Shown: positions 7,688 to 35,980 of the stretch, piece after piece
How positions within the stretch are numbered: the first letter of the stretch is position 1
How the letters are laid out: every line of letters begins with the position of its first letter
Assembly: GCF_964204645.1 (NCBI RefSeq)
Contig: NC_134026.1
Location: forward strand, 10,935,950 to 10,999,949
Direction: 5' to 3'
Source of the DNA: Tubulanus polymorphus
Taxonomy: Eukaryota > Animalia > Nemertea
Length of the DNA stretch: 64,000 nt
Position numbers and translations under genes: made by a program
Notes under the pieces: generated by a model
Told to the model about the DNA's origin: nothing
The model's input: the letters and a program-made list of their open reading frames with translations, nothing else
The model's database searches: none

Positions 7688-10403
7688 CCCTGAAAAATCT
7701 TACCCTGAAACCGATCACGCAATAGCTACGTAATTACCGTAGCAACACATGGTTCCCACAGTACAGGAAAATTGGATAGGGGAAAACTTGATTATGTTGA
7801 ATGATATTTTAAGTTTGGAAATACTTATTTGGGAATAAAGAAATTTTCCTTTAGTCAGGGAAATATTGGTTTGTTTGTTTGTTTGTTTAGCCAAAGGGAT
7901 ACTTTCTTCAGCTATTTTTCTTGATAATCACCTTTTTTAGCCGATCACCACAAAAACTGTACTATAATGATATCGGTTCATTTTTACGAAGGCCCCTTTT
8001 TCCAATTGGAAAAAATAGAGAATAACCCATGTACTATCAAACTTAGGAAAAAGTTGGGAATTACTAATTCATGTTATAACTGTGAGAACCATGGCAACAG
8101 CAAGATACAATGGAAGTGTTGAAAGTGATGGGTTCGCGCCCCCTTCCGTACTCCTACTAAATATCAACTGGCAACTAATTTAGCGCTGGAAGTATGATAT
8201 ATTCGAATGTGGCAACTGGTATAGCACTGGAACTCTAGATATCTTGAACTAATAAATACAAGTTTGTTAACGTTAAATGAAAACACTATATCCGTGTAAA
8301 AGCGAGAATGTTTTTACAGGTGTTTTTAACGCCATTTCCAAAAAGATAAATGACGATAGAAAATGTATAAAAAAATGGTTACGCCAATCCAACGGCATGT
8401 ATCAACAGCAATTTTAGTTGACATCAACATCTTTTCAAATAGAAATAACGTAGAAACGTAGAAATAATGTAACGAATTTCTCAACGTTTTTTCAAAGTTG
8501 AATTAAGGTTGTGTGTTAGTTGGGGCATAAATACTGTTAGAATTTTTTATATTTGTATATACATGTATTTTATACTCCTCTATTGTACAAAACCAACGAT
8601 GTAAAACAGTCTTTACGGAGAAAATAAAGGTACTTTAAATTGAATTTGGCGCCCACCTGTCTATGTTTCAAGCCAATCAGATGCTTTGTTTTTCACCGGC
8701 AGGTTCGCTCTATCAATACCACGCATCTGATTGGCTAGATCTTATGTATCGTAGCCGCTGAGCGGCAACCTGCCGGGCGAAGAAATCTTAGGCAGTGTAT
8801 TAGACCCGGCAATAAGGGCCAGGATTTGTGTTGGTGAAATATTCGATAATGATAATTGAAAATGATAATATTTATCAACAGAATTTGAACGGTTTTCTGC
8901 ACAACCAGTGTACAAGTACAAGAACAACAAGTACAAGTACGTATGATATGATATGATATATCTATCTGAGTGACATTATGTGTATGATTAGTTCACTTAC
9001 AATTCTTTAACACTCAACCCTCGTGCCTCGTGGGTTGATGGTATATCCAGGACTGAAAAGTCACCTCACATTGCGCATGTATCTGCGTAGGTTACAACAC
9101 GTATTTCTCGGTTCCGAGATATTATTGTTAACAAATACACACAGATCCTTAACAGCCAATTGTTTATCGGAAATCTATAGTGGATAAATAAACAACATCA
9201 ACACAAGGTATTTCTGTGATATTTTGAATCTATTTGCAGTTTAAATTTAGCGCCATTCTCGCAGGATTGTCAACCAACCCGGAGCGGAAGTAAAATCCAA
9301 GCCAGTTTACAAGCCCCTGATTACTCGTCTTTATTGTATCCGTATGAAGTCTAAGGTGAGTGTAAGCGATTGGTGTGTATGGTTTATTCCTTATGAATGC
9401 ATGGAGGGCCTTTAAATTGTGTGAGACGTTTATAACATTGAGAATCACTGCGATGGGTGTTAGGTCTGCGGTACCCGGTACGTACGCGCGCGCGACACCG
9501 ACACCGGCTTCCACTTCAAAAATTATGAAAAAAATATTAGAAATAATCGACATCTGATATACACCAAATATACCTCTAAAGAAATGTATTTATAGCGTCG
9601 GATATTGTGTCGAGAATTTCAGATCTTCCAACCACACAGGGGCCGTATCTCACACATCCTCGCTTGCTAGGGGTCCGGTATCGCTCCCGAACTCGCTTCC
9701 ACCAGCCCCTGGGAAAACCTATTCCTTATTGATCTCTTGCTGCTCATAATAGTTCGTGGCTCCACTTCGCGAGATACCGTATCTCTTCATATGTGGTTGA
9801 AATGAATTACCTAGAAAAACGTTTCTTTTTAGAAAATATTCTGGAAAGCAGGCCCATTTTTCCTGGAAAAAAAATATTCCTAAAATTGGTCGGGTCTGGT
9901 GTATGAACCAATTAAGTTGATTGACAAGCGCAGCTTCGCACCTCAATTTGTCGATGACGTCAGATAGAAACAATGACATTACCACGTGCGCATGCAAACA
10001 GACAAATGAGAAAAAAATATTTTGATACATACACGTATTTGAATAAGCGTAACAGAGATTCCTTTGACTTTTGATTAATTATTTTAATCTAAGCCAGCTA
10101 GTGGATGGAATAATTCAATAGTCTCCATATTTTATTCCACAAAGTCTCACATAATTTCTGCCGACCTTTATTATTCTGCGTATGATATTAGATTTTTCTT
10201 TATTTTTAGGATATGAACAGCAAAGAAACATTTGGCAGATACATTTCATGACTGTTCACACCTGAGTCGATATTTCATAATTTTCTGATGTAACTCAGTA
10301 TTGCTGAAGATGGCTATTGTTGAAACTTTGGAATAAACCTCAAGCTCAAGGAAACATTTTCGTACTTCCCCATCATTATTGTAGAATCTCGTTATATTAT
10401 CAT

Positions 10404-10496
10404 AGTAATTGGAATATCAGGGGTTCAGATCAGAGGACGAGAGGACGAGACACCACTCATCACCACAAGTAATTTTTTTTCCTAATAAATGGGAGA
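10404..10496 (+). repeat. Left TIR of the Polinton (93 bp)
   Basis: AGTAATTGGAATATCAGGGG...TTTTTTTTCCTAATAAATGGGAGA is the exact reverse complement of 27665-27757; includes the ATG at 10489. Confidence 0.97.
10473..10491 (+). promoter_or_regulatory. Poxvirus-late-like promoter T(n)-N5-7-TAAATG (representative copy)
   Basis: TAAATG at ATGs 10489, 12288, 12826, 13719, 14847, 16125, 17609, 18951, 19400, 19816, 20062, 20422, 21282 and 27672; TAAATAATG at 21213; upstream T5-T8 run in 12 of 15 genes. The motif is seen directly; promoter function is inferred. Confidence 0.75.
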
Positions 10497-12288: not shown

Positions 12289-12826
12289 TTATTATAGAAA
12301 TATTTTTACTTTCAATATTTGAAAATGTTATAACCCCAGTTGATAATAATGTCATAAATCCACCTAATTGAAATGATAAATATCCAATCCATTTATTTAA
12401 TTCAGTCATAACTAAATAATCATTTTTTAAATCGGAATATAATCTATTTTCATCTTCAATTGGTAGTATATAATTACATAATTTACTATAACCTTTTACT
12501 ACATTTTCTGATATCGCGTCATTAATTTTAGCTGTTCTCGCGGCTTCATAAATCTTAAATAATCTAATAATTTCAACTGATTTCATTGTATCTAATTCAT
12601 TATAAGTTAAATTTTTATCGACAAATTTTTTACATTTTCCAGATGCTATTAATATTTCTAATTGATGTTTGCAATAAAGATAATATTCATAATTATTATT
12701 TGTTGTAACATTATTTAAAACACCATCATCTGGAATTAGTTTGTTTTCTGTTATTCCTAAATCATCTAAAGTTTTTTCAATTGGAACATCACCATCTTTA
12801 GATTTTATTTTCTTTTCACCTCCCAT
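12221..12826 (-). CDS. Polinton hypothetical protein (201 aa)
   Basis: T7-GTTATA-TAAATG start; intact ORF in the minus-strand gene array. Confidence 0.75.
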   Translation of the reverse strand: MGGEKKIKSKDGDVPIEKTLDDLGITENKLIPDDGVLNNVTTNNNYEYYLYCKHQLEILIASGKCKKFVDKNLTYNELDTMKSVEIIRLFKIYEAARTAKINDAISENVVKGYSKLCNYILPIEDENRLYSDLKNDYLVMTELNKWIGYLSFQLGGFMTLLSTGVITFSNIESKNISIINERGERSEGINCEEKTENSETN

Positions 12827-12860
12827 TTATATAACAAAAAAATTAATTGTGTGATGTTGC

Positions 12861-13105
12861 AACTAGAATTTAACTAGAATGTAACTAGAATTCAACTAGA
12901 TTAACAAGCTTGTTGAAATATTGTTGTTTTTGTTTATTTCTAGTTAAATCTAGTTGATTTTTGTTTCAACTACTAACAACTAGAATTCAACTAGAATGTA
13001 ACTAGAATTAAACTAGATTAACAAGCTAGTTAAAATATTGTTAAATCTATTTGATTTTTGTTACAACTACCAATAACTAGAATTCAACTAGATTAACAAA
13101 CTAAT
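12861..13105. repeat. Intergenic array of AACTAGA(A)T units (about 11-bp period) with higher-order duplication
   Basis: About ten direct AACTAGA copies in three blocks plus inverted TCTAGTT copies, between the ATPase stop and the next gene. Confidence 0.85.
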
Positions 13106-13110
13106 TGAAT

Positions 13111-13719
13111 TTAAATAAATTCATATTTAAATGGGTGTTGTAATCTAAATAGTAATTTTGATCTTTTAATATTTTTCAACTTATCCATATATTCATTATG
13201 TAAATCATGTGGAATAATATCATTTTCCTCAAGTGCATTTTTCATCGATTTTCTATCTTTATTGTAGAATAAAACTAGAAATCTAATGTTTTCGCTAAAG
13301 TCTTTAACAATTGAATTATATTTTTGATTTAAAACCCAAGTTGTTATCCCAAAATGTCTCCCAGAGAAAGCTAAATAGCATAACTCACTTTCTCTAACTT
13401 TTGAATCATGTAGATTAGCACAATCATCTATAATGAATAATGTATTTGATCCTTTATAAATATCAATTGCTATTTTAATACAATTATCTAAATTTTCTTT
13501 TACTGTTTTAGGATCTAATATAATAAATTTATTATTCCTAGTAATATTTCTATCATAAGTTTGATTAAATTCATATGTTGGACAAAATAATACTATATTA
13601 TGAAAATAGTTTTCATAAACAGTTTCTAATAAATTTAATATAAAATAAGTTTTTCCACAATTTGTTACACCAGAAATTAACATATTATGAGGCTCAAATA
13701 TGAATAATTCCTTATTCAT
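13111..13719 (-). CDS. A32/FtsK-like genome packaging ATPase
   Basis: Walker A ISGVTNCGKT, Walker B LFIIDD, GRH motif and downstream NQ; next to integrase and capsid genes. Confidence 0.9.
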   Translation of the reverse strand: MNKELFIFEPHNMLISGVTNCGKTYFILNLLETVYENYFHNIVLFCPTYEFNQTYDRNITRNNKFIILDPKTVKENLDNCIKIAIDIYKGSNTLFIIDDCANLHDSKVRESELCYLAFSGRHFGITTWVLNQKYNSIVKDFSENIRFLVLFYNKDRKSMKNALEENDIIPHDLHNEYMDKLKNIKRSKLLFRLQHPFKYEFI

Positions 13720-14847
13720 TTATATATTTTTAATTTTACTTGATAATATCCATTCATTGAATTTATCTGGCCATCCAACCCATTTTACTAAAGAATATTT
13801 TTTTCTTTTAATAGTTTTTGTTTTTAATACTTTTTCAATTTTATATTCTTGTTCTAGATTTTCAGTAGTTAAACTTAATTCTTCTTCGTAAAAGTAGCCA
13901 TCAACTTCTTCACCATCTAAATCTTCTAATTTATAGACATATGGTTTTGTTGTTATTACCTTTTTTATTTTATATATTTCTCTAGTAAAATTTCGATCGT
14001 ATCCTTTATCAAATATCTTTTTATACTTAGAAATTCTAACATTTTGACCAACTTTAAATTTAGGTTCACCAAAATCATCTACAAGAAATGCTCCATATAA
14101 ATTATTCCAAACAATTTCAGCATTTTCAGGTTTTCTAGCATCAATAGGTTTCATTCCAATAGAAGAATGATAAGAATTATTATATCCTTCTATCAATTTT
14201 GGTAAAACATCAATCCATTTAAAAGTATTATTTGCTGTAAAATATTTCTACATTCTTGTTCTTAATGTTCTATTAAATCGTTCAACAACTGCTGCTTTTT
14301 TATCTGATTTTGTTGAAAAATATTTAATATTATGATTATCTAAGAGTTCATGAACAAGTGAATTATCAAACTCTTTTCCATCATCAAATTGTATTTTTTC
14401 TGGTTTTAGTTTATCATCCGAAAGAGATTTTCTTAAAACATTTGATGTTTGTTCAGCATCTTTTCTATAAAGTGGGAAGCTCCATACATAACGACTAAAA
14501 ATATCAATTATATTCAATAACCACCAATAATCATCATTATCTTTCTTAACATTTTTCATATCAATTAAATCTCCTTGCCACTGTTGATCTACATAACTTA
14601 CCATAGTTTTACGAGTTTTAGATTTTCTAACAATTTTTTTATGTGTTGTGTATGTTGGTTGTTCTAACATAAATTCATTTATATCTTTATATTTAATTAA
14701 ATTGTGTGGGATTATCTTATCTAATTTATCTTGTTTTACTTTACGCCATATATTTTTAGTAGAAGAATAAGCAACTGAACTCTCAGGGTTGTAATATAAA
14801 TTTCTTAAATATTGTTCTTTAGTATTAGGAGATTTTTTACCACCCAT
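13720..14847 (-). pseudogene. Retroviral-type (rve) DDE integrase with C-terminal chromodomain; one in-frame stop
   Basis: WQGDLIDM / IQFDDGKEF / VVERFNRTL triad; TAG at 14248-14250 is followed in frame by KYFTANNTFKWIDVLPKLIEGYNNSYHSSIG; chromodomain YKIEKVLK...YSLVKWVGWPDKFNEWI. Confidence 0.92.
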
Positions 14848-14877
14848 TTATATACGCTTAATTTTAACTTTATATTT

Positions 14878-16125
14878 CTAATATTGAATACTATCTAATT
14901 GTGAATTTACTATATTTAATTGTGCATCAGATATAATATAAATGTGCATTTTAAAATTTTTGATTCCTTTATTCTTTGTCATGAATAATTGTATTCCATC
15001 TTTAGTGTTCTGTAGTTTTTTCCCAGAACCATGTAATGAATTATCCTCTGTTGTTCTAAAATCTAACCATAATGCATATTTACTACCGGTATAATAATCA
15101 ATTTGATTAATATTACAATTTTCAAATGATTTTACTTTTTCATTCATAAAATGTTTTCTAATTTCTGGCCATTGATCTATCATTCTCATTCCTTGACAAA
15201 ATATTTTATTTGCTATTCCTTCGATAGTTATTTCTACTTTTGTTATTTCAGGATTATAATAATTATCAACATTTATTGCGCCATTAGTATATGTTGCAAT
15301 GGTAAAAAATATTAATATACCTTTAATAGATCTTCTTGGGAAGTTAATATTCTCATTAATTATTTCATCATTTGCATTAATAGTTACGGTTTTAAATTTA
15401 TCAATATAATCATATAATAATGAAAATCCTTGATTGTATTTAGTTTGAATTATACTTGAAATATTTTCATCAGTTACTGTATCATATTCTAAACATATAT
15501 TCGATAATTTATAACTCATATCTTTATTAACGCTAGATAATACAATTTCATTTACAGGAGCAAATGTTATTTCGAATATAACGTCTTCTTGAATTGCGTA
15601 TTTATATAAAGGTGCATTATTATTTATCAATTCAAAATCTAATGGAATTTTATATTTGCTTCCATATATACTTTTTATCAATTTATCTACAGCATTAGTT
15701 AATATTGCGCTATTAGCTTCTGATCTTAATTTATTTTGGTTTTCTGATTGGATGCCTTGAAATATCATATTATTTCTATTTTCTTTAGTTAACCATAAAT
15801 CTTTATAATGCATAAATAAATTATAATCATCTAATGAGAAAACTGTTTCCGGACCAATCTTTATTGTTAACTTTTTAATCAAATATCTTCCAACATTATC
15901 AACAACATAATTATTATTATTACCGATTACTTTTATATCGGCCGATAAATAAATACTATTTGGAACATAAAAAGTATTTTTTGTTAATCTAGGAATTCTA
16001 ACGTATAAAGTTTCATCGGGATTAATATTTGAAGGGTTATGAGTAATTATACGATGTGATCTTTCTGCTTTAATAGCATAAGATATTCTAGAAATCTTAG
16101 AAGGATTGATATAACTCCCACTCAT
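14878..16125 (-). CDS. Major capsid protein (double jelly-roll), Polinton type
   Basis: 415-aa beta-rich ORF (THNPSNINPDETLYVRIPRL...YKLSNICLEYD...ALWLDFRT...LHGSG...YIISDAQLNI) resembling invertebrate Polinton capsid proteins; size and context fit. Confidence 0.8.
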   Translation of the reverse strand: MSGSYINPSKISRISYAIKAERSHRIITHNPSNINPDETLYVRIPRLTKNTFYVPNSIYLSADIKVIGNNNNYVVDNVGRYLIKKLTIKIGPETVFSLDDYNLFMHYKDLWLTKENRNNMIFQGIQSENQNKLRSEANSAILTNAVDKLIKSIYGSKYKIPLDFELINNNAPLYKYAIQEDVIFEITFAPVNEIVLSSVNKDMSYKLSNICLEYDTVTDENISSIIQTKYNQGFSLLYDYIDKFKTVTINANDEIINENINFPRRSIKGILIFFTIATYTNGAINVDNYYNPEITKVEITIEGIANKIFCQGMRMIDQWPEIRKHFMNEKVKSFENCNINQIDYYTGSKYALWLDFRTTEDNSLHGSGKKLQNTKDGIQLFMTKNKGIKNFKMHIYIISDAQLNIVNSQLDSIQY

Positions 16126-16145
16126 TTATTTAACAAAAAAATTAA

Positions 16146-17609
16146 TTATTTATTTTTTATTATGTTTACTAACCCAAAAATAATTGCACTTACAACTGTA
16201 ATTAAAAATAAAATAATATGTTCAGCAGCAAAGTTAATAATGTTTCCTGCAGATTTCAATATAAAACCAACAATTGATGCAATAACTCCTGGTAAAGCTG
16301 CAGCAGATTTCTTTGATAGTTCCCATAAATATTTTGCTAATTTCTTTAAACCATCTTTAACTTTATCTTGTATAGAATTATTATCATTCGGGGGTTTATC
16401 CGGTTTATTGGGAGTGGGAGTAGATTTCAAAGCATTTGATATAGCTAAACCAATTGTTGTAAATAACATAGTTACAGCTGTTAGAATTGAAAGAATTGTT
16501 ATTCCTTCTAACTTAAATAATAATTTTATTCTATCTTTCAATGATATTTCAGAATTTGGTTTTATTAGATATCTTTTAAAAACATCTTTTAACCTTTTAA
16601 AATTATTACCATATTCTTTTAATAATATATCTCTTTCTTCTTTCTGTAATTCTATATTATATTTTAAATCATCAATTTCTTTTTCTAAACGTAATTCTTT
16701 TTGCCTATATTCTATTTCTTCAATAACTTTATTATCTCTATCTAATTTCAATTGTTCTATTTCTTCATTTTTATCAGTTAATTCTTTTTCTAAAGTTCTA
16801 ATTTTAAAATCTATTATACTTTTATCATGTGCAATTTTATCAGATGCAAGCCTTATACTAATAATCTCTCTAATTGCTTTATCAGAAAATATATTTAAAT
16901 TTTCTAATTCTTGATCTGTTGCATCAAGTAATCCCTTCGGTAAAATTTTTTCAGTTTGAACTTCTCTTGAATTAGGTCTACTAGTTTTGGAATTAATAAC
17001 TTCTTTAGTAATTGTTTCTGTTTCTAAATTTTCATTAATTATCTTAAAAAATTTAGCATTTCTTTGTTTAAATTCTTTAAAATTAACAGTTCTTTCTTTT
17101 TTTGTAACATCAGTTATAACATCATTATTGATTTTCTTAATTCTAGATGGTTCTAATAAATTAGAAGTTGATTGTGTTATTATTTTATCGTTACTTTTAA
17201 TATTTAAAATAATAAAATAATAGTCGCCTTTCAATTTCCAATAATAAACGCCATTTAAATATTTCAAATCTTTTGCCAATTTATCCATACCTTTATCTGT
17301 TATATTGAAACCAGATTCTTTTAATATTGGTTTAAATTCATCAGTAATTTCATCATAATTTAATTCTTTATTTATTAAACCTGGGACTAAATTTTCAGCA
17401 CGTATTTTCGATCTAGCTCCTTTAATATATTCATTTGTTGATTGTGGTTTAGAACCAGGAACAACTTCGGGTGTATTTAAATTAGAATTATATGCTGTTT
17501 TATTATCATTACTATAACTTGTTTCACTAAAATCAAGTGGTTGTTCATCACTTATACCAGGTTCATCTAAAGGATCCACCAATGGAAAACCTTCTCCACC
17601 TTCTGCCAT
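16146..17609 (-). CDS. Coiled-coil protein with C-terminal hydrophobic/amphipathic helices (487 aa), putative virion membrane protein
   Basis: Long E/K-rich heptad region, then GITILSILTAVTMLFTTIGLAI, a Pro-rich linker, AAALPGVIASIVGFIL and HIILFLITVVSAIIFGLV. Confidence 0.8.
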   Translation of the reverse strand: MAEGGEGFPLVDPLDEPGISDEQPLDFSETSYSNDNKTAYNSNLNTPEVVPGSKPQSTNEYIKGARSKIRAENLVPGLINKELNYDEITDEFKPILKESGFNITDKGMDKLAKDLKYLNGVYYWKLKGDYYFIILNIKSNDKIITQSTSNLLEPSRIKKINNDVITDVTKKERTVNFKEFKQRNAKFFKIINENLETETITKEVINSKTSRPNSREVQTEKILPKGLLDATDQELENLNIFSDKAIREIISIRLASDKIAHDKSIIDFKIRTLEKELTDKNEEIEQLKLDRDNKVIEEIEYRQKELRLEKEIDDLKYNIELQKEERDILLKEYGNNFKRLKDVFKRYLIKPNSEISLKDRIKLLFKLEGITILSILTAVTMLFTTIGLAISNALKSTPTPNKPDKPPNDNNSIQDKVKDGLKKLAKYLWELSKKSAAALPGVIASIVGFILKSAGNIINFAAEHIILFLITVVSAIIFGLVNIIKNK

Positions 17610-17625
17610 TTACATAATAAAAAAA

Positions 17626-18951
17626 TTAAAATTTAAAATATAATATTCCTCCGATTACAATTCCTATATAAGTAAAAGCTAATTTAGTATTTTCATGGTA
17701 TTTATTATCATTATCAGTTTTAATTATATCATGTTGAATATTATCAGTTTTAATATTTTCTGTAGTATTGGAATCTTTTATTTTGGAATCATTATTTAAT
17801 TTGATATTATTAGTTTTAGTTTCAGTTGATTGAATGTGTTTTTTATTTTTTTCACCTTCCATTAATTTTGGAGCAGTGATAATCTTTTTATTTATATCAT
17901 TCAATCCAAATGAATTATTTATTGTTGCAGTTTTAATTAGATTATTATAACCAATTATATTTCCCATCTTTAATACTAAATCATTAGAAATAATAAATAG
18001 ATTAGGGCCTATACAATAATTTAATCTAATATGTGATTTATCTAAATAATTTTGATATCTTACAATGTTTTCTGGAATCGATCTATTTTTATCATTATGA
18101 ATTGAATCTTCAAATAATACTTTGAATTGTTTCTGCGCATCAAATGAAGTGTTATCATTTCCAATTATTGGGGATCTTGTTTCAACTTGCGCACCTAGAA
18201 TACATATCAAATAAGTTCTAATAGATTGATTTATTCTTTGTATTCCAGCTTTAGTAAAACCTTCACTATTTTCTAAAATGAAATTAACCCAACCATTATT
18301 GTTTTGTTGTTGTATATTATTATAATATTTTGGTAATTCATTCCAATTTAGTGTTCTTATATCTGAATTTGTCATTATTTTTCCAAATTCTTTAGTATAT
18401 AATATTCCTAATCCACCCATTGTTCCAATTTTTGCTCTAAAATCTTTATTTGAATTAATATTAAATTCATTACATATTTTATAAAACTTAGAAAAATTAA
18501 TATTATTATTCAATTCTTTAAAATATTTTGAACCTGGTAAAGGACATTCTAATTCATCTAATATTAATTTTATTTGAAAATATGTATGAAATCTAAAAAG
18601 TGATAACATCAATGGTAAACTTGGTTTGTTTAAATGATCATTCCAACTAATTCCACATCCTGTTGTTGCGCAATAAACAGCGAAATTTAATTGGTTCTGC
18701 CAATACTTCATATTAGATTTTGATAACCATTGTTTTGCCTCATTTAAATTTTTGAAATTAATTGTATACACATGAAATATATTTTCCATCTTTACATGAA
18801 AATTATTACTTTCAGTAACATAAATATATAAATCAATTAATGAATTTAAAACTTCATTTCTATATGTAATATCTTTATTAAAATCTATTGCTGGAATATT
18901 ATATTTAATTGATTTATTATATTGGAAAGCTTTTGGAAAACTATCGACCAT
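17626..18951 (-). CDS. Polinton hypothetical protein with C-terminal membrane anchor (441 aa)
   Basis: Intact ORF with TAAATG start, WQNQLNFAVYCATTGCGIS motif and terminal hydrophobic segment LAFTYIGIVIGGILYFKF. Confidence 0.8.
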   Translation of the reverse strand: MVDSFPKAFQYNKSIKYNIPAIDFNKDITYRNEVLNSLIDLYIYVTESNNFHVKMENIFHVYTINFKNLNEAKQWLSKSNMKYWQNQLNFAVYCATTGCGISWNDHLNKPSLPLMLSLFRFHTYFQIKLILDELECPLPGSKYFKELNNNINFSKFYKICNEFNINSNKDFRAKIGTMGGLGILYTKEFGKIMTNSDIRTLNWNELPKYYNNIQQQNNNGWVNFILENSEGFTKAGIQRINQSIRTYLICILGAQVETRSPIIGNDNTSFDAQKQFKVLFEDSIHNDKNRSIPENIVRYQNYLDKSHIRLNYCIGPNLFIISNDLVLKMGNIIGYNNLIKTATINNSFGLNDINKKIITAPKLMEGEKNKKHIQSTETKTNNIKLNNDSKIKDSNTTENIKTDNIQHDIIKTDNDNKYHENTKLAFTYIGIVIGGILYFKF

Positions 18952-18967
18952 TTATATAACTAAAAAA

Positions 18968-19400
18968 TTAATAATTTATTAATTCTTTTAATAATTTATC
19001 TTGTTCTTCAACTGTTATATGACCATTTAAACTTATGATATAATCTAGTGTGTTCTTTAATTTATTAATTTCTTTTATATTAGTTTTAATTTTTTCTTTA
19101 TTACTTTTTATATTTAATTTTGAACTTATACCGGTTAAAACACTTGAACTTAATCCTAACACACCAATTGATATAGCTAAAGGTGTTAATGGACTGAATA
19201 TTGCTAAAATGTTATTACAGAACTAATTGTAACCGAACCACTTATAATCAAATAATATATAATTTTACTTTTTAAATATTTTTTCTTTTTAACTTTTAAG
19301 TCACTTTCAAATTCTAATATTTGTTTTCTAAATATGTTTTTAATTTAGTTTTATTTATATCATGAGGAATAATATCAATACTATCAACTTTATCTTCCAT
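18968..19400 (-). pseudogene. Small membrane protein gene with two frameshifts
   Basis: Starts MEDKVDSIDIIPHDINK at T8-GCTAAA-TAAATG (ATG 19400); single-base losses in A/T runs near 19320 and 19207 would join it to the 18968-19162 ORF; two hydrophobic segments. Confidence 0.65.
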
Positions 19401-19424
19401 TTATTTAGCAAAAAAAATTACTAA

Positions 19425-19816
19425 TTAGTAAAACTTATAAGCAACAAATATAACAATAACTGTTCCACCTAAAATCCAAATTATTTCATATTTCTGTTGT
19501 TCTTTACTTGGGGTATAATAATCTGATAATGTAGGTTTGTATAGATGTAATTTTTCTTTATTTGTTACGGCGTTATATAATCTCTATGTGAGATCTTCTG
19601 ATCATATAATTCTTTATTGATGTAATCCATATAGTTTTGTCGTTTTTCTCTATATTCTTCTGCAGCTTTATTGTATTTCTCTAACGCTAAGTTATGTCTT
19701 CTTTGTTCTCCTAATGAACTATTTTTATCAATATGCTTAAATAAATAACCACCACCAGTAAATGCTAAAGCGTTAACAATTGCCGATCCTATAATAGTTA
19801 TAATTGCAGAAGCCAT
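19425..19816 (-). pseudogene. Small membrane protein gene, frameshifted near 19580
   Basis: MASAIITIIGSAIVNALAFTGGGYLF...RRHNLALEKY continues in another frame as KPTLSDYYTPSKEQQKYEIIWILGGTVIVIFVAYKFY*. Confidence 0.7.
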
Positions 19817-19840
19817 TTATTTAGCAAAAAAATTATGCAT

Positions 19841-20062
19841 TTATATAGGAGGAATATATTTTTGTTTTTCCAAATAATCAATTGTTAAATTAGATAAAGT
19901 AACTGCTAACGTTAATTTTAAAATATCATTTATATCAAATCTATCAACATTAACACTTCCCATTTTGAATACTTTTTTTAATACCATTGAATAACCAACA
20001 GTTCCAACTGATAGTAAGGCGCCATTATATAATCCAGTTATTATCCACTTATTATCACTCAT
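19841..20062 (-). CDS. Small hydrophobic Polinton protein (73 aa)
   Basis: T7-GATAAA-TAAATG start, coupled to the stop of the upstream gene; ends DYLEKQKYIP. Confidence 0.7.
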   Translation of the reverse strand: MSDNKWIITGLYNGALLSVGTVGYSMVLKKVFKMGSVNVDRFDINDILKLTLAVTLSNLTIDYLEKQKYIPPI

Positions 20063-20422
20063 TTATTTATCAAAAAAATTACTATCATCAAAATATTTAG
20101 TTATCTTATTTATGATTAATTCAACATTTATTTCATTACTACTTTGATGATTATCATATATTTCAATTATTATTTTTTTAATATCATCGATGATAAAATC
20201 TTCATCTAATTCATAAAATCTTAAAGATTCTCTAATTAAATTAGTAATCTTTTCTATATTTAAAGTTTCTTTATCTATTGTTGTTTCATACTCAAATGTT
20301 GTTTCATTAGAAAATGTAATATTTTTGATGTGTGTAATTACATCATTAATGTTAAATTTCATTTCTTTCTCACGTTTAAAATCAAACCCAAAACATATGC
20401 TCGGCCCAACAGTTATATTCAT
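20063..20422 (-). CDS. Polinton hypothetical protein (119 aa, acidic)
   Basis: T6-CACTATA-TAAATG start; ATGA overlap with the minor capsid stop. Confidence 0.65.
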   Translation of the reverse strand: MNITVGPSICFGFDFKREKEMKFNINDVITHIKNITFSNETTFEYETTIDKETLNIEKITNLIRESLRFYELDEDFIIDDIKKIIIEIYDNHQSSNEINVELIINKITKYFDDSNFFDK

Positions 20423-21213
20423 TTATATAGTGAAAAAATTACTCTTACATTACTCATGCATTTACATCTTATAACTAATTCATATATCACAGGAAAGTTA
20501 TTCAAATCAATTAAATATCCATTATGATTTCTTATTTCTAATTTAAAATTATTAAATTTAGGAATGCATGGTTTGAAATCACATTCAGTTAAATTATAAT
20601 TTATTTGAGTTCCAAATTGTTTAACATTTTTCAGCGGTAAAATATTTAATATACTAGAATTACAAATTGTATATTTAGTTGCTTCGAATGTTTTTGTAGG
20701 CTCGATTAAATTGCAATAAATATAAAAGTGTGTAAAAGGTATTATATTTGAATTACCATCTACGTTTCCTGTAACAGTATCTGGTGCAATTCCTAACAGT
20801 TTAGCTAATGGTTTTTTTACCATAAATGCATGTTGACTTTCATCATATACCTTTATTTTAATTTTATTTGTGCTATCACTTTTTATAAATCTAATTAAAG
20901 ATTTATCTTCTCTTCTAATTTTCAACGGTGCTCTTCGATTAATTTCTTGAGCTAATGTTTCTAAATTATATAATCCTGGTTTTAGAATTATATGAAACCA
21001 TTTATTTACATTTCCATTATGAATTAAAAAAGTATTATCTTCAATAGTTTTATCCGTTATATTATAAAAAGAATTACATAAACTTATATTAACTAATTTT
21101 AAATCTACACAATTTTTATATTCTCTATCTAATTGTACTAGTAAATTATGAGATTTATAATTTGTAAGTTTTCTAGAATCAACAAATATTCTGTATTCCT
21201 TTAATTCTACCAT
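20419..21213 (-). CDS. Minor capsid protein (penton, single jelly-roll)
   Basis: IFVDS...LKLVNISLCNSFYNI...PGLYNLETL...FYIYCNLI...LEIRNHNGYLIDLNNFPVIYELVIR pattern typical of Polinton/virophage pentons. Confidence 0.75.
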   Translation of the reverse strand: MVELKEYRIFVDSRKLTNYKSHNLLVQLDREYKNCVDLKLVNISLCNSFYNITDKTIEDNTFLIHNGNVNKWFHIILKPGLYNLETLAQEINRRAPLKIRREDKSLIRFIKSDSTNKIKIKVYDESQHAFMVKKPLAKLLGIAPDTVTGNVDGNSNIIPFTHFYIYCNLIEPTKTFEATKYTICNSSILNILPLKNVKQFGTQINYNLTECDFKPCIPKFNNFKLEIRNHNGYLIDLNNFPVIYELVIRCKCMSNVRVIFSLYK

Positions 21214-21281
21214 TATTTATAACATAAAAAAATTACCGCTCATCACTAAAAATTAATTTTAATAAAATTTTTCCTTAATAA

Positions 21282-22598
21282 ATGGATGAGAAGATAGCAT
21301 GCGAAATTTGTGGTGAACTTCTAAGAAAAAGCAATATGGCTCGACATATGAAAAAACATGATGAAAATTATAAACCCCCTAAAATAAACTGTCCAAAATG
21401 TAATAAATTATTCTCAAGAAATTATGTTAAAAAACATTCAGAGAAGTGTAGAATTAATGGCGCAACGGCTAATGTTGATAGTAATGAAAGTAATAGTAAT
21501 TCTGCTGAAGTTGAACCTGAAGTTATTTGGAAAAGACCTTTCTTATTCTATGATAAGGATAATATAAAAGATCATTTCTGTGAGCCTTGTCGAATAAAAT
21601 ATAGCCCTGAAAATATAGAAGATTGGGAGAATCATCAATTTCGTAAAGTACATATAGATAAAATTTCTAATAAATTTGAAACTGAATTTAATGAAAGAAA
21701 AAATAATTTATTAGAAAAAATAAAATATGAGAAAACGTTACCAGATAATGAAGAAACAGTTGAAAAGTTAGAAAAACAATATAATGAATTAACAAGAAAA
21801 ACATATTATTGTAAATATTGTAAATTGATTATTACAACAAGTAATTCAAATCTACATAATAGAACAATAAAACATAAAGAAAACGTAAGAAAATACCAAG
21901 AGCTTAATGAAGATCTACTACCAATAAATTATAAACAAAAATGCCCACAATGTATTTATGCGACCTTAAGGCAAGAAGGTACTGTGTTATTTTGTAATGA
22001 ATGTGGATGGCAAAAGAATTTATTGGGTGAAGAAAAAACTAGAGATTTTCTCATAGATCCAAAATTAAATTATCTAGATGAAATATTTAAAATATTTTCT
22101 ATGGAAGATCATACACCAGAATATATGCAATGGCTTGAAAAAATGAAAATAATAGAAAATAAAAATGGTGAAATAACTAAAAAAGATATTATAAAAACAA
22201 TTATTCCACCAACATTTAACACAAAACAAAAGAAAATGTATTTATATTTATTATTTAACGATTATTATGAAAAACCTAAATTAACAGAAGAAGATATGGA
22301 AAATATAAAGAAAATATTCAAACAAATATTAATGTATCATTTGGAAAATAGAATAACAGATTCAATAAATTATGAATTCTTTTTAAATAAGATTGTAAAT
22401 TATTTAAACCTAGATATTATAATTCCATTTGATGAATTAACAAACAAAAAGAAACAAAGAGAGCGAGATGAAATGTGGAACAAGATAGAACTTTATTTAA
22501 ATGAGAAAAATGGAATGGAAGAAGAACCTGAACAATTAAATGAAAATGAAGAAGCCAATAGTGATTTCGAGTATGATGATATTGATTTTATGTTTTAA
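21282..22598 (+). CDS. Zinc-finger protein with C-terminal VLTF3 (poxvirus A2)-like late transcription factor domain
   Basis: N-terminal C2H2-type fingers (CEIC...H, CPKC, CEPC...H, CKYC...HNRTIKH); Zn ribbon CPQC...EGTVLFCNECG; then KLNYLDEIF, PKLTEEDMENIKKIFKQI, SINYEFFLNKI and RERDEMWNKI, matching the VLTF3 family motif order as recalled. Confidence 0.7.
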   Translation: MDEKIACEICGELLRKSNMARHMKKHDENYKPPKINCPKCNKLFSRNYVKKHSEKCRINGATANVDSNESNSNSAEVEPEVIWKRPFLFYDKDNIKDHFCEPCRIKYSPENIEDWENHQFRKVHIDKISNKFETEFNERKNNLLEKIKYEKTLPDNEETVEKLEKQYNELTRKTYYCKYCKLIITTSNSNLHNRTIKHKENVRKYQELNEDLLPINYKQKCPQCIYATLRQEGTVLFCNECGWQKNLLGEEKTRDFLIDPKLNYLDEIFKIFSMEDHTPEYMQWLEKMKIIENKNGEITKKDIIKTIIPPTFNTKQKKMYLYLLFNDYYEKPKLTEEDMENIKKIFKQILMYHLENRITDSINYEFFLNKIVNYLNLDIIIPFDELTNKKKQRERDEMWNKIELYLNEKNGMEEEPEQLNENEEANSDFEYDDIDFMF

Positions 22599-25500
22599 TG
22601 ACCATAAGGTAATGTTTTTATACCATCATCTAAAATATGCCTTTTATCATCAAATGGATTTAAACTAGTTTTTTCAACTTCATTAATGTACATCTCGTGA
22701 TTTTCTGATCTTAAACAATTCATTTTATTTTTCATAACAATTGATTTATATAAACACTTTATATAATCTTGAAATTCTATATGTTTATCAACCACATGTT
22801 TTGTTATTCCTTTTAACTTTTTAGCTTCATGATCTTTTGTTCTATAACTATACATTTTACTTCTTATCCCAACGAATTCAATCATTTCATCACCCCCTAA
22901 TTCATCTTTAAACTTACCAGGAATCTTTTTATTATCATTGCTAAATAGTTCATGATCTTTGGGATAATTGCTAAATTCAAAATAATGTTTTAATGTTTTT
23001 AAGTCTTTTGTTATGTCATTTGTCTTGATTTTTAGTATGTACGCATCCGTATTGACTGCTATTAATGGAAATCCACAGTTAAATGTACCATCTTCAGTTG
23101 ATAAATCATAAACATAATCTGTTGGGTTATATATTTCAAATAAATCTTTAACTTCTTCTGTTAACTCATTTTCTACATGGCTTAAATTAAAACAATTTGG
23201 TTTAGATTTAATCAATCCAATATTCATATTAAAACCTAATGAATTGCATAATATATTCAATCCTGATATAGCAACTTTTCCTTTTTGAGCTAAAGATATT
23301 GTTTTGCGGTTTTTGAAACTTTTTGAACCATCTGCGGCATAGAATCCAATGAAGAACCATTTTCTTAAATTATTTTTTGCATTTAATACATAATCTGGCG
23401 CTATTTTTTCTTTAGTTGAAGTATTACTTTTCACTATTGCATGAATATAGAATTCATTATATTATATTTTATAGCAAAATCTTTAGGATTATTTACAAGT
23501 ATTCTATAAACTGCTGTTGATTTCATAACATCCATGATTCTAAATGTTTTATGTGAATAAACTTCTTCGCAAAATTTCTTTATTCTTTCTAATGATTTTA
23601 AGTCTTGATTGCATAAATACCAACAATATTTATTACCCCAAACATATTTATACACACCTGCTGAACCATCTCCCATGAAAAATCCTTTGATAAAATATTC
23701 TTTTTCTTCTAATGTTTCGGGTTCTATATTATAAATATTATCAATAATTTCATCAAATGACATATGATTCATTCTTTGGAAAAATCTTTTATGCAATAAT
23801 TCATCTCCAATTTTTATATCAGTTGGTTTTATTTCATCACCAATTCGTTTAATTAAACTATGATCTTCTGTAACATCTACAAATCCTAATTTAGTTCTAA
23901 CTATAGATTTTCTTATTTGTTTTATGCCTAATAATATTCTTTAATTTTTTCCATCCATTTCTTGTCCAAACATCCATTAAACCATTTATTTGTATTAATT
24001 CTTTTTCTCCATATGAAATATAACATTCATTTTGTTTTGGAATTATTTCTGAAATTCTTCTTACCAATATTTTATTATTACATTTTAATAATATTGGGGT
24101 GTCAGCTGTTACAGAATCAAAATATAATATTTCAATATGCTTTTCCCCAAAAAGTGGTTGTAAAACATTTTAATAAAAATCATACATTAATAATTTTGAT
24201 ACTTCTAAAACAGTCGAACCAATAAATATAGGTTTATTAAATTTCATTGATGTTCTTTTTAATTTAACTGCTGTTAAATAATCTTCAAATCTTTTATTTC
24301 CTAAATGTCTAGGACTTGATTGTAAATGTCTTAATCTTTCAGAATTATTTACTAATTCAATATCATTTCTATTTCTAATATTTTCACATGTTTTACCATA
24401 AAAACTATTATTCATTAATTTGAAGAAATCTTTTTCAAAATCTGTTTTTGATATTGTTCTCTGTTGAGTATTGAAATCTATATATTTTTCTAACCACTTC
24501 GATTGATTAAATTCAATATATCTATGTACTTTCTTTAATTTCATTCCTTGTTTTAGATAAAATTTTAACATTCTATAATGAACAATATAATTGTATTTAT
24601 TATTTTGAGTAAGTATTAATTTTTCTGTAAAAACATGATCTTTCGGTTTTATTTTCTTCTGGTATTCACTTAAATAACTATCATCTACAGTTAAATGTTC
24701 TGGGCAATAAGGTAAGTTTCTTGTTTTAAACTTTATATTTTCAGGATATTCTAAATCAACTACAAAGAAATAACCAATTGGTGCTTCATCTTTTAAACTC
24801 GCAATTGCGCTTTCCCAATCAGTTTTATCACCATTTTCAACTTCTGTTAATATAAAATTTTTATATGGTTGAGGTTGCATCATTGCCCAACCATATAAAT
24901 TATTGGCGTCAATATATAATAATTTATATTCATCATTTGCTTTAAAATACCTATCTCCCATAACACCACTAATTCCACCTCTAATTGATTTTTCAAATAA
25001 TAAAACCATATCTGGTTCTTTTAATAAATCTAATTCTACATTTGTATATTTTAAACCACATTGCCAGGTTAAACCAGGACTTGAATAATAATAACAAGGA
25101 TCAACATTAAAATGATTCAAATTAACTTCTCTAAATTTTTCAAATATGTCAGCTAATATCATAACATCTGATTTTAAATATAAATCAACTAATTCGCCAT
25201 GATTTTTCATCTTAAAATGGTTCCAAATATTTAATGTTCTATTAAAAACTTCGTCTTTCACATACTCCTCTTTTAATTGATCATAAAATTGATCTTTTAA
25301 TAATTCTGTTACATTAAAATCATTGTGTGTTTTATAAAATGAATAAGGAATTGCGCCTTTATATCTCAATAATTTAAAATCTTGTTCATTTGGATAATAA
25401 TATTGAGTTATAACAAAATCATTATCAACTAAACTTTTTGATAAATTATCTAATGAACTTGCTAGAAATCTATAAGAATCTAAAAATCTAATGCAACCAA

Positions 25501-27672
25501 ATTGAAATGAAATATAATTTTCAGATGTTTTAGCTAATAGTTTAAAATCATATTTTCTTACATTTGCTTCATTCATTATATTCTTCTATTGCATTATATT
25601 CTTCTATTTCTTGATTAATTGCGCCCAATTTTCCCGATAATTGTTTTATAAATAGATGGGTATCATAGCCTGATAAATTATGAAATAATATTGGTACGAA
25701 ATTAACTTTCTTAGCTTGTAAATTGCAATCTTCATGAGCAGCTCCACGATATTTTGAATTCAAATGATCATGATCTCTAACTTTTTTATCAAATGAATAA
25801 AAACGTTTTTCACAATAACAACAATGAGTTGCATAATTAAAATCAATTTTATCTTCTTTTGTCATAACTATTCTTTTATTTTTGTTTAATAATTTTGCAA
25901 AATCACTTTCTAATTCAATCATTTTATAACAAAAATCATTAACTACATTTTCACCTCTAAAAGAAATATATTGACTTTCATATAATTCAGGATAATTTGA
26001 TTTTATATAAATTCCATAAGCAGCAGCTCTTTGATGAACTTTTTTAATTGTATTTATAATTGGCGGGTCTTGTATTGTGTCTTCATTTAATTCATTTCCT
26101 TTATCCATTGATTTTAATAATTGCTTTTTGTTATATATTTCTTTTCTATCTTGATCAGTTAATTCTTTATTCAACGATTCAAAATCCCCATAAATTACAA
26201 ATGGAACAATATTCTTAAATTTATGATTAGTAAATTTCAATTTATAATCTTTTTCTGTTGGCATTATTAATTAACAAAAATCTTTATTATCACATAATTC
26301 TTTATGTTTTAGTAACGCATTCTCAGTCATAAATTTAGATAAACATTTTCTACATAGATAAATTTTATTATGATGATCACTTTCTGTTCTAAAGAATAAA
26401 TCAATTTGTTTTAACCACATATAATGTTCATTTTCATCTTTTTTTGTAATATAACAAATCTATAGCATTTTCATCATCATAATATTCTGTTAAATATAAA
26501 GCTTCCAATGTATAATCTTTAATATTTTCACCTTTTGTCTTTGGTAATTGCATTAATTCGAATACATTTATTTTTAAATTATTAACTTTTTCTATTTTAG
26601 GAATCATTTTTATAGTTACTGGATATTGATCAATTTTATATAATGTTTCATATTTCCGATAATCTGTTATTCTACAAACATTTTCCTGTGTTGGATGTAA
26701 GCAACTAATAATTGACCATAGAAAACATTTATTATCTTCATTTTGAATATTTATTACTGCTTTTGTTGTAAATGGTAATTTAATATAAGATGATGCTTTA
26801 ATATCCTTTTCTGTTGTAAAGTTTGAATCATTTTTAAACATTTTATTACTTTTTGATGTTTTATTTCTTTTTGTATTATAAACGTTTAAATCTAAATATA
26901 TAATTTCATTCAATGTTAAGCCAGAACCCTCAAAATATCTTTCTTCAATATGACGTTTAAATTCATTTAATATTTTTTCTAACTTCTCTTTTATTTGCGT
27001 TTTTGAAATTATTTCTTCAGAGAGTGTTTGAATATTATAATTCATTTTTTCTTCTGACTTTATAAAACTTACTTTCCCAGAGATACTAATTTTTGGATAT
27101 TCAACATCTGTTATCAAATCTAGTATTTTTTCTATTATTTCATTAAATTTACTATAATCTTCCATTGTTTTTCCTTTAAAGAATCTAAATATAATAGCTG
27201 CAGGACCAATTTTACTATGTAATGTTTCTAAAATTTCAATTGTATCTTTTATTTCTAGTGAATCAATATAATTTCTAACATTTTCCATGTAAGGTTTATT
27301 TGAAATGGATTTAGTTTTTGAAGTTGGTTTTTTTACTTTTTGAGGTTTATCATCAAAATAATCTTTTCCTAAAACATTATTACTCAAATTTTGGTGGTGT
27401 TTTTGTGATTCGAGATGTCTATTATAATTCCTTTTTACTATAAATTCATTACAAACTTCACATTTTATTTCATCCACATTCATATTTTCTAATCGTTCTT
27501 TTCTTTCATTGGAATTTTCTGGGGTTTCAAAATCTATTACATTTTTTATATGATTTGCAGTTTTTTCATGTCGTGTTTTATTAGATGTATCGACGTATTT
27601 TTTACAATATTGGCAATAATATTGATTTTTATTAACATTATTGTTTTCTGGCTGGTGTTCATTCTCTCCCAT
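22595..27672 (-). pseudogene. pPolB: Protein-primed family B DNA polymerase (N-terminal Zn fingers, OTU-like region, exonuclease with HNH/EndoVII insert, polymerase), intein-containing, disrupted
   Basis: ExoI VIYGDFES, ExoII FHNLSGYD, ExoIII YLKSDV, motif A YIDANNLYGWAM, motif B KLMNNSFYGK, motif C YFD|TDA split by the intein, then GKFKDE, SKMY, KLKGI, FDDKR. Lesions: frameshifts near 26440, 25575, 23903 and 23445; in-frame stops at about 26271-26273 and 24170-24172. Confidence 0.95.
23051..24115 (-). mobile_element. Intein with LAGLIDADG homing endonuclease (about 355 codons) in pPolB motif C
   Basis: N-junction ILYFD|SVTADTPILLK (block A); block B VDVTEDHSL; two LAGLIDADG helices FIKGFFMGDG and FFIGFYAADG; blocks F/G YVYDLSTEDGTFNCGFPLIAVN|TDAY. 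Removing it restores YFDTDA. Confidence 0.93.
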
Positions 27673-27757
27673 TTATTAGGAAAAAAAATTACTTGTGGTG
27701 ATGAGTGGTGTCTCGTCCTCTCGTCCTCTGATCTGAACCCCTGATATTCCAATTACT
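27665..27757 (-). repeat. Right TIR of the Polinton (93 bp)
   Basis: Exact inverted copy of 10404-10496; contains the pPolB ATG (27672); followed by TSD TATCAT. Confidence 0.97.
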
Positions 27758-28419
27758 TATCATCACAGCACTGATATAGTGTTTTATCAATCTTGTTACG
27801 TGGCTACATTCAATTTATTTAATAAATCTTTTTGTCCTTTACTCGAGTTTTCCAGTGGTTACAACTTGGTTCACTTATTTGCATCATCTAACCACCAATG
27901 ATAAGTCTTTAAGCTGACTCCTGAAATGGAATAATCTTGACTAAACCTTGATTGGTTACTAAGTTCTATTCACACATCGATGACTGAATTACTAGTTTGC
28001 CAATCTATGTAACTATTCCTAATAAGACTGCTTCTTCGAACCTCGGGACTCTAAAGTCCTCTTGTTTTTTTACAATTTTCCTTTTGATATGCTAACCGGC
28101 ATGATCAGTTGATACAATTGCTGCCCGGGTACTGTTTAGTAAAAGCACCGTACCTAATTAGTATTCAACTCACTGACTTTAAGTTATGAACTGAACCTGA
28201 GTAACCACAGTCGTCTGAGTACTATAAACTGGAAGTATTTCCCACACATGGCTTCTAAAATCATCATTATGATATTTTTAGAAATGTCTTGAGTCAGGTT
28301 TTTTCTTGACTCCTATAAAGTGACACTCATTCTGCTTTCGAAAAACCCTTGTCTTGAAGACAATTTCCAAAACTACCTACCGCCGTGTCCAATCATCATT
28401 TTCTATCGTATGCCGTTTC

Positions 28420-34000: not shown

Positions 34001-34845
34001 GAAGTTTGGCCAACACCTTACCAGACCTCGTATGAACTGAGCTAGGTTCTGGGTTCAAATAAGTGGGCTCATTCTCACATTTCTTCAGATGCGCTGGATT
34101 CTAAAGATATGCCTCTTAGACACCTCTTTCTGGGGAGTGACTCCTTTCTCGTCCGTACTAACCACAACTATAGTTTGCTTCGCATACCTGGGTATAAGTT
34201 CATGTTTCCTTGATTATCCAATCTCCCAGCTGAATTTCACATTGAAGCGCATTTCTCCGATTATCAGCGTAATCCTTGCCATTCTGCTTTTGTTCACTGC
34301 CTTTGTCTTTCAGCGATTGATCGTCGTCCGTAAATTCGGCACTACATAATACCGGCATAATCTACATCCCTCGTGAAAACGTTAACTTCGCGGAAGAAAC
34401 CCCGGTAGACTCGCGAGGAGTCGAATTATACGCGAGTAGAAAACTTATTGAGTTCACAGTCCTTACCTTCAGCGTGTGCGATCTTCATTATACATTTGAT
34501 TGATTTTGTATATAGTGTTAACTAACAATGAATCCCAGTTTGGTCCCGGAAAAATAGGTAGTAGAGTACCGGTCTATAAAACCGCACCTTGAAAAATATC
34601 AATTATTTCAGAAAATACCTCCTACAGTATCCAAGAGTTACACCCAGGCTAGCCATTAAATTCATTAACAGCCTCGTAGTACCTGTTTTAACTTATGGCT
34701 GCCAAATATGGGGCTTCAAGGAACAAAGAAAACTGGAGAGAATCCCTCTCAAATTTTATAAATATCTCGGCTCAACTCCAGAACAGGTAAAAGTAGATCT
34801 GCCCAGGCTGAGTACATAGCACGTATTCTTCCGCGAGCCAGGTAG

Positions 34846-35188
34846 CCGACCTGTTTTACTCGTCGACAATTCCGACGATTTAGAATTGCCCACCTATTAT
34901 ACTCGTCGATAATTCCGACGATTTAGAATTGCCCACCTATTTTACTCGTCGACAATTCCGACGATTTAGAATTGCCAACCTATATTACTCGTAGACAATT
35001 CCGACGATTTAGAATTGCCGACCTATTTTACTCGTCGACAATTCCGACGATTTAGAATTGCCGACCTATTTTACTCGTCGACAATTCCGACGATTTAGAA
35101 TTGCCGACCTATTTTACTCGTCGACAATTCCGACGATTTAGAATTGCCGACCTATTTTACTCGTCGACAATTCCGACGATTTTAAATT
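34846..35188 (+). repeat. 43-bp tandem array (about 8 units); inverted array of about 6 units at 36049-36310
   Basis: Unit GCCGACCTATTTTACTCGTCGACAATTCCGACGATTTAGAATT; mirrored in copy B (about 36913-37173 and 38034-38376). Confidence 0.95.
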
Positions 35189-35270
35189 GGCACACGGTCC
35201 TTCATCCCAGCCATTTTATATCAGGGTAATCCACACAAACACCCAGCCCCTCGATCCATTGATATCTTGT

Positions 35271-35980
35271 TTGCGTGGATTACCCTTGAATAAAGTGGCT
35301 GGGATCGAGGGGCTGGGTGTGTGCGTGGATTACCCTGATATAATGTGGCGCGGATCGAGGGGCTGCGTGTGTGCGTGGATTACCCTGATATAATGTGGCT
35401 GGGATCGAGGGGCTGCGTGTGTGCGTGGATTACCCTGATATAATGTGGCTGGGATCGAGGGGCTGCGTGTGTGCGTGGATTACCCTGATATAATGTGGCT
35501 GGGATCGAGGGGCTGTGTGTGTGCGTGGATTACCCTGATATAATGTGGCTGGGATCGAGGGCTGTGTGTTTGCGTGGATTACCCTTAAATAAAGTGGCTG
35601 GGATCGAGGGGCTGCGTGTTTGCGTGGATTACCCTTGAATAAGGTGGCTGGGATTGAGGGGCTGTGTTTTTGCGTGGATTACCCCTGATATAAAGTGGCT
35701 GGGATCGAGGGGCTGTGTGTGTGCGTGGATTACCCTGATATAAAGTGGCTGGGATCGAGGGGCTGTGTGTGTGCGCGGATTACCCTGATATAAAGTGGCT
35801 GGGATCGAGGGGTTGTGTGTTTGCGTGGATTACCCTTGAATAAGGTGGCTGGGATCGAGGGGCTGTGTGTTTGCGTGGATTACCCTTGAATAAGGTGGCT
35901 GGGATCGAGGGGCTGGGTGTTTGTGTGGATTACCCTGATTTAAAATGACTGGGATGAAGGACCGTGTGTAGATTACCCTT
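35271..35980 (+). repeat. 50-bp tandem array (about 14 units)
   Basis: Unit GTGGCTGGGATCGAGGGGCTGTGTGTGTGCGTGGATTACCCTGATATAAT; one inverted unit at about 35191-35256; mirrored at about 37243-37950. Confidence 0.95.

Follow-up and report, generated by a model that had tools for sequence, protein, structure and literature searches.

The family B DNA polymerase (PolB) inteins of Mimivirus, other Nucleocytoviricota and archaea occupy position III (pol-c), the YGD|TDS-type site in motif C (PMC549080, in the portion of the text available). The intein described here resembles them in its motif C site, its Ser1, Asn and Thr+1 residues, its length of about 350 aa and its LAGLIDADG endonuclease, and the insertion site matches position III, as the earlier note on this DNA had proposed. 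Unlike those of the viruses and archaea, it is hosted by a protein-primed PolB (pPolB, PF03175), which belongs to an integrating element, a Polinton, and is not significantly similar to their polymerases. The Polinton inteins form a clade of their own on a long stem. Intein-bearing viral polymerase genes have also been endogenised in eukaryotic nuclei, as in the Klebsormidium, Tetrabaena and labyrinthulid cases (PMC10710043). However, as far as the available text goes, those are presented in connection with giant-virus insertions in algae and protists, and the main text does not contain the word 'polinton', whereas the carrier in the present case is a Polinton that occurs in multiple copies, some containing the intein and others without it. 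The nuclear inteins of fungi and protists (VMA1/PI-SceI, Prp8) share the Hint plus LAGLIDADG architecture, with PI-SceI itself among the fold matches given below, but they sit in host genes; the accessible part of the 2018 survey that describes them counts 0 inteins in Metazoa (PMC5784728). Nuclease domains inside pPolBs are known in the form of HNH, VSR and endonuclease VII inserts (10.1101/2023.08.22.554363, PMC11071308). In contrast to the present case, the available portions of these sources describe no Hint domain or splice junction for them, and place them outside motif C; they have been suggested to derive from intein invasions (PMC11071308, available text). The element in question has both, a weakly matching endonuclease VII-like insert (PF02945) and a complete intein. 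The word 'intein' does not occur in the nematode pPolB paper (10.1101/2023.08.22.554363), and in the accessible portions of PMC12220804, PMC5718144 and PMC4104785 inteins are treated generically or not in connection with pPolBs. A literature search, thin on subscription journals, found no published intein in any Polinton or protein-primed PolB. The intein in question is genuine and belongs to a known allele family; for its class of host, no described case was found.

The window, i.e. the whole stretch of 64,000 nucleotides that was analysed, contains a Polinton of 17.35 kb (10404 to 27757) with a GC content of 23-25%, compared with about 38% in the flanks. The hallmarks of such elements are present. 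Terminal inverted repeats of 93 nt, starting with AG on the left (10404..10496, plus strand) and ending with CT on the right (27665..27757, plus strand), are 100% complementary and lie within a 6-bp target-site duplication, TATCAT (10398..10403, second copy 27758-27763, plus strand). Between them are found a pPolB, a retroviral-type integrase with a chromodomain (13720..14847, minus strand; PF00665 E 1.3e-10, PF00385 E 9e-5) containing one internal stop, and an A32-like packaging ATPase (13111..13719, minus strand; PF04665 E 1.9e-12). The ORF at 14878..16125 (minus strand) is a probable double jelly-roll major capsid protein, as a lead only: its Atlas look-alikes (0.97-0.98) are all viral, a minority of them with Capsid_N, Capsid_NCLDV or DJR families, and Pfam and PHROG searches of this candidate gave no match. 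Neither a minor capsid protein nor an adenoviral-type protease was named by any Pfam match among 20 ORFs. An intact multi-zinc-finger ORF of 438 aa (21282-22598, plus strand) opposes the pPolB and is the sole long plus-strand gene of the element. The non-coding gap that separates the ATPase from the 12826 ORF contains three imperfect direct repeats of about 100 nt (12815-13125).

The pPolB is encoded on the minus strand. Its N-extein (24116..27672) comprises a Zn finger, the endonuclease VII-like insert (PF02945 E 0.0017), an exonuclease, polymerase motifs A and B and the YFD of motif C. Its match to PF03175 (E 3.5e-17), within an element bounded by terminal repeats and a target-site duplication, bears out the identification of the host gene as a Polinton pPolB. 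The C-extein (22595..23050) starts at Thr+1, the TD of motif C, and is 44-48% identical to the C-exteins of P0002, P0004, P0005 and P0123. The N-extein is broken near 26439, at 26271-26273, near 25577 and at 24170-24172. Given these several breaks and the stop in the integrase, the window copy of the element is dead.

The insert occupies 23051..24115 of the minus strand (1,065 nt, 355 codons in length) and splits motif C between YFD and TD (YFD|S...N|TD). ILYFD runs to 24116, SVTADTP starts from 24115, and the insert ends with GFPLIAVN at 23051, followed by TDAY. It encodes a Hint domain and a two-motif LAGLIDADG endonuclease. Block A with Ser1 (SVTADTP, 24095..24115; TIGR01445 E 0.0016) was recognised by sequence and block B with TxxH (TEDH, 23860..23871) by sequence and in alignment A1, both on the minus strand. 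Each of the LAGLIDADG motifs, GFFMGDG (23665..23685, minus strand) and GFYAADG (23327..23347, minus strand; PF14528 E 0.0027), keeps its acidic residue. Blocks F and G (23051..23116, minus strand) have Asp in F, no F-block His, a penultimate Val and a terminal Asn, and are one residue shorter than in most of the family. Ser1, TxxH, terminal Asn and Thr+1, the class 1 intein residues, are thus all present, and these coordinates and motifs, the penultimate Val included, are by sequence as previously annotated. It had also been claimed that a stop and two frameshifts hide the intein. The frameshifts, near 23900 and 23458, are indeed inside the insert, which reads as three frame pieces; the stop (24170-24172), however, is in the N-extein, 18 codons upstream of the insert. 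Single pieces of the window intein give matches below threshold (TIGR01445 E 0.0016, PF14890 E 0.038, PF14528 E 0.0027, PI-PkoII E 0.008), and all of these weak matches agree on an intein/LAGLIDADG identity. With X placed at the breaks, it aligns over its full length to the P0281 intein (60% identity) and to the other Polinton inteins (40-48% identity).

Homologue searches revealed 18 pPolB clusters with an insert at the same junction (P0001-P0011, P0013, P0070, P0113, P0281, P0283, P0288, P0295), five of which, from other assemblies, are full-length, unbroken pPolB plus intein proteins (P0001, P0281, P0283, P0288, P0295). P0002 scores 42.4 bits against Intein_splicing (PF14890, cut-off 35.8), 34.2 against PF14528 and 28.4 against PF05204. 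The PF14890 cut-off is also passed by P0283, so that a Hint domain is recognised in intact relatives, with the fold in agreement, whilst the window pieces alone remain below threshold. An AF2 model of the P0002 intein, built from a 6-row alignment, has a pLDDT of 78.6 and finds as its best fold matches the endonuclease-bearing inteins TliVMA, PI-PkoII and PI-SceI (E 4e-15 to 3e-12) together with PhoVMA, with TM values of 0.46-0.67 for the four. The top viral fold matches are PolBs of a phycodnavirus, Pandoravirus and Megavirus, and the LAGLIDADG domain of the Polinton inteins matches I-DmoI and PI-PkoII. TxxH is kept in 10 of the 11 complete Polinton inteins. Relatives above Pfam cut-offs, the motifs and the precise empty alleles described below all uphold the earlier call of a LAGLIDADG intein. 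It is very probable that the insert is a broken class 1 LAGLIDADG intein between the motif C Asp and Thr of a Polinton pPolB, whose intact sisters likely splice and have likely spread by cutting intein-free copies. Several of the relatives lie on contigs of 100-760 kb. On L033, the contig of P0013, the reading frame can be followed across two stops as far as a complete intein terminus and the C-extein, and for this reason L033 was taken to be another decayed intein-bearing copy. A pattern search for the junction DNA gave no real match among five in viral contigs and one among 17 in metagenome contigs (L033).

With an E-value threshold of 1e-30, a profile search retrieved 832 representatives. 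Among the top 150, nearly every one is an RNA-primed PolB or a topoisomerase whose junction is similar, and none is a recognisable pPolB; P0222, an extein-less fragment within the same 150, is close to the Polinton group. Most of the intein relatives sit in giant-virus-like PolBs, a label that rests on NCLDV capsid genes for three reference records and on BLAST similarity to these for the others. The viral class of P0146 and P0016 derives from polymerase similarity alone, and searches of the loci around these two found nothing. The family also occurs in T4-like gp43 (PHROG 262; P0012, P0015, P0016), in an archaeal-type PolB and in an ADP-ribosylglycohydrolase (P0024), where its GGD|S...N|TD site mimics the PolB motif. 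Members were further seen in type II topoisomerases (L009 and others). Many giant-virus-like PolBs (P0129-P0143 and others) have a second, related intein in motif B, about 50 residues upstream, and a few have two inteins back to back in motif C. Among cultured phages there was one weak match, to the middle intein piece.

In a tree of 56 rows hand-picked from 324 (LG+G4, no mixture model), nine Polinton inteins form one clade (100/99) on a long stem, within a group of 48 rows (98/96) dominated by giant-virus-like rows. This nesting, together with the abundance of giant-virus-like relatives, points to a direction from giant virus to Polinton. Alternatively, the intein was donated by a T4-like phage or by an archaeal-type PolB, or it originated in the Polinton lineage. 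The difference would be one of route only, and we regard this alternative as unlikely, though likelier than the others considered. T4-like gp43 inteins are about as near to the window intein (37% identity) as the best of the giant-virus-like PolB inteins (38-39%, range 33-39%). The named relatives that were returned, with no Mimivirus sequence among them, are Mimiviridae sp. ChoanoV1, 40% identical to the P0001 intein, and Megavirus courdo11, a fold match of 29% identity. Moreover, a one-residue deletion near the C-terminus, found in 89 of 310 rows, is shared by all complete Polinton inteins, the T4-like inteins and a clade with ChoanoV1. The tree gives no support for joining these deletion bearers, and AU tests of three alternative sisters of the Polinton clade rejected none (p = 0.35, 0.14, 0.48), the T4-like arrangement having p = 0.14. 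However, the weak placement of T4-like inteins as sister of the Polinton inteins in a first tree (65/88) did not hold with more rows, and in the more widely sampled tree the T4-like rows fall within the deletion-bearing clade of giant-virus-like inteins (98/91 and 98/84). Most of the 89 deletion rows are in giant-virus-like PolBs. A eukaryotic virus and a Polinton also share a cell. We retain a giant virus as the most likely donor. As T4-like gp43 inteins nest among those of giant-virus-like PolBs, the phage gp43 inteins (P0012, P0015, P0016, P0152, P0279, P0385) suggest a transfer between eukaryotic viruses and phages.

Intein and extein trees were compared, as earlier proposed. Across eight related pPolBs the intein identity (43-77%) tracks the extein identity (39-81%), with r = 0.94 for 28 pairs that are not independent, and the unrooted topologies match. 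The intein thus appears to have diverged in step with a single pPolB lineage, within which polymerase identity drops to about 40%, and its entry would accordingly be old. The exception is P0001, whose extein is only 19-22% identical to the others whilst its intein is 44-50% identical and nests beside those of the window and P0281 (98/90), a mismatch that implies a jump between pPolB lineages. These comparisons indicate that the intein entered a single time and at an early date, diverged together with the polymerase, and on one occasion jumped into an unrelated pPolB lineage. The earlier note had proposed a transfer between an NCLDV PolB and this pPolB. The relatives are mostly giant-virus-like, in keeping with that proposal, but a recent move into the pPolB copy of the window is at odds with the co-divergence. 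The intein would instead have entered an endonuclease-VII-type pPolB lineage once, long ago, from an RNA-primed viral PolB, most likely of a giant virus, and then co-diverged with it, with at least one later jump between that lineage and the unrelated one of P0001.

Reads were mapped to the region at 80% likeness for runs X5, X1, X2 and X3 (4 of the 10 listed), comprising raw reads (X5) and contig runs (X1, X3) from two studies, one of them possibly the source of the window assembly. In X5, position 23050 is joined directly to 24116 in 40 reads, which leave out exactly 1,065 nt. A further 44 reads (5, 29 and 10) have the same net absence of 1,065 nt with a few other letters at the joint. Loose read ends accumulate at 23041 (109 reads) and 24116 (100 reads), and depth falls from about 420-730 just outside the insert to about 140-270 within it. 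Because reads skip exactly 23051-24115, the boundaries of the insert are right to the base. The exact skip is not listed in contig runs X1 and X3. Intein-free sister copies, which the earlier note had suggested looking for, therefore exist as precise empty alleles in reads of the same species. From the fall in depth roughly one third of the mapped copies contain the intein, a rough figure since the conserved extein may draw reads of more distant families. Most reads differ from the window copy at each of its breaks, so these breaks are largely private to it.

Following splicing, the endonuclease of the free intein would cut the empty motif C coding site, and repair would copy the intein in, between co-resident or co-replicating Polintons. 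The retention of nuclease residues and the co-residence of empty alleles favour such homing over passive inheritance. It is nonetheless conceivable, if improbable, that the intein splices but no longer homes, having entered long ago and been inherited with the polymerase ever since, the empty sisters being separate subfamilies or precise losses. The co-divergence described above fits inheritance without homing too, as in the eight pPolBs intein and extein have diverged to almost the same extent, and the GC content of intein (0.25) and extein (0.23-0.25) is alike. The intein-free reads may also represent sister subfamilies with a site that escapes recognition by the endonuclease. Against this, all 11 of the complete Polinton inteins, some of them as little as about 40% identical, have retained the two LAGLIDADG acidic residues, an improbable outcome in the absence of selection. 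Moreover, no mini-intein (endonuclease-free) was found in Polintons, and P0001 points to a jump between lineages. Homing in the intact sisters remains the preferred reading.

Motif C is a catalytic motif of the polymerase, and an unspliced precursor could hardly polymerise. Splicing would consequently be under selection, as the unspliced polymerase would be without its active site. By analogy with known intein chemistry, an acyl shift at Ser1, aided by TxxH, would be followed by attack of Thr+1 and then by cyclisation of Asn in the absence of either C-terminal His, ligating YFD to TD and restoring motif C. The state of these histidines was scored in the 310 of 324 collected rows that could be scored, the rows being related and not independent. 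His is present in both block F and the penultimate position in 162/310 and in neither in 135/310 (126 with Lys), leaving 13/310 with one only; most of the 135 His-less inteins sit in unbroken PolB frames. The penultimate residue of the complete Polinton inteins is Val in the window, Lys in P0001, Ser in P0281 and His in the other eight, placing the window and P0001 in the His-less class. A Val in place of His would fit a subfamily with neither C-terminal His. As it was found once among 310 inteins, however, the Val could be decay in the window copy. According to the available text of the sources, neither C-terminal His is always required for splicing and about 5% of functional inteins differ at the penultimate His (PMC4031507), and phage inteins without the penultimate His are reported to splice (PMC5050341). 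The His-less subfamily offers a new set for the study of splicing chemistry.

A reading without splicing, in which a Hint-endonuclease domain, domesticated or unable to splice, has been fused to the polymerase in the manner of the HNH and VSR inserts of pPolBs, is very improbable. Hint-free HNH and VSR inserts do occur in pPolBs (10.1101/2023.08.22.554363, available text), and the window and P0001 inteins lack both C-terminal His. However, here it is the catalytic motif itself that is split, Ser1, TxxH, Asn and Thr+1 are kept, and the empty alleles are precise. That the insert is an assembly chimera or contaminating giant-virus DNA can practically be dismissed: many relatives come from environmental assemblies, but the terminal repeats and target-site duplication match, the flanks are non-viral, raw reads from a second study span the intein and both junctions, and the same insert is found at the same site in other pPolB lineages.

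A broader picture is offered more tentatively, as one that falls a little short of probable. Polintons in animal genomes would harbour a working, homing intein of giant-virus origin that entered once, has cycled between filled and empty states in animal cells for a very long time, has jumped between pPolB lineages and splices without either C-terminal His. Filled and empty alleles of a multi-copy nuclear element make intein homing testable in a probable animal genome. The locus adds sequence evidence that Polintons and large DNA viruses exchange genes, and is an example so far missing for the published guess that the nuclease inserts of pPolBs came from inteins. It would also mark Polinton families in which translation and replication must be frequent enough for selection to maintain the splicing and nuclease residues.

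The gene starts of the element share a motif. TAAATG is found at 14 of 15 of them, against 50 of 680 of all ATGs in the element, mostly after a T-run (10489, 12288, 12826, 13719, 14847, 16125, 17609, 18951, 19400, 19816, 20062, 20422, 21282 and, for the pPolB, 27672). A T-run followed by TAAATG occurs 13 times in the element and never in 46.6 kb of flank; 100 simulated sequences contained 1.8 on average and at most 5. The motif is also part of both terminal repeats. TAAAT is a transcription start element of poxviruses (PMC4542343, available text), and the Polinton starts resemble the poxvirus late start element. One hypothesis is that a large cytoplasmic virus acts as helper during replication of the element and would thereby provide a route for transfer. 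No relative carried a poxvirus name, and abutting stop and start codons could be the source of a few TAAATG cases.

The flanks, which probably belong to an animal chromosome, are gene-poor. They contain a LINE retrotransposon in several pieces, with endonuclease and reverse transcriptase (1046-4685, minus strand), and a single-exon ORF (57087-57674, minus strand) for a small single-pass membrane protein with a weak KCNE-like match (PF02060 E 0.014, below cut-off), which is possibly a host gene. No diagnostic host gene or RNA was found in the flanks by Pfam searches of 7, 20 and 49 flank ORFs or by PDB and Rfam searches. Beyond the element, a 3.7-kb palindrome (34764-38458), made of 43-nt and 50-nt tandem arrays, has arms of 1,604 nt that are 100% complementary, and a second foldback with arms of 569 nt is found at 39816-41582.
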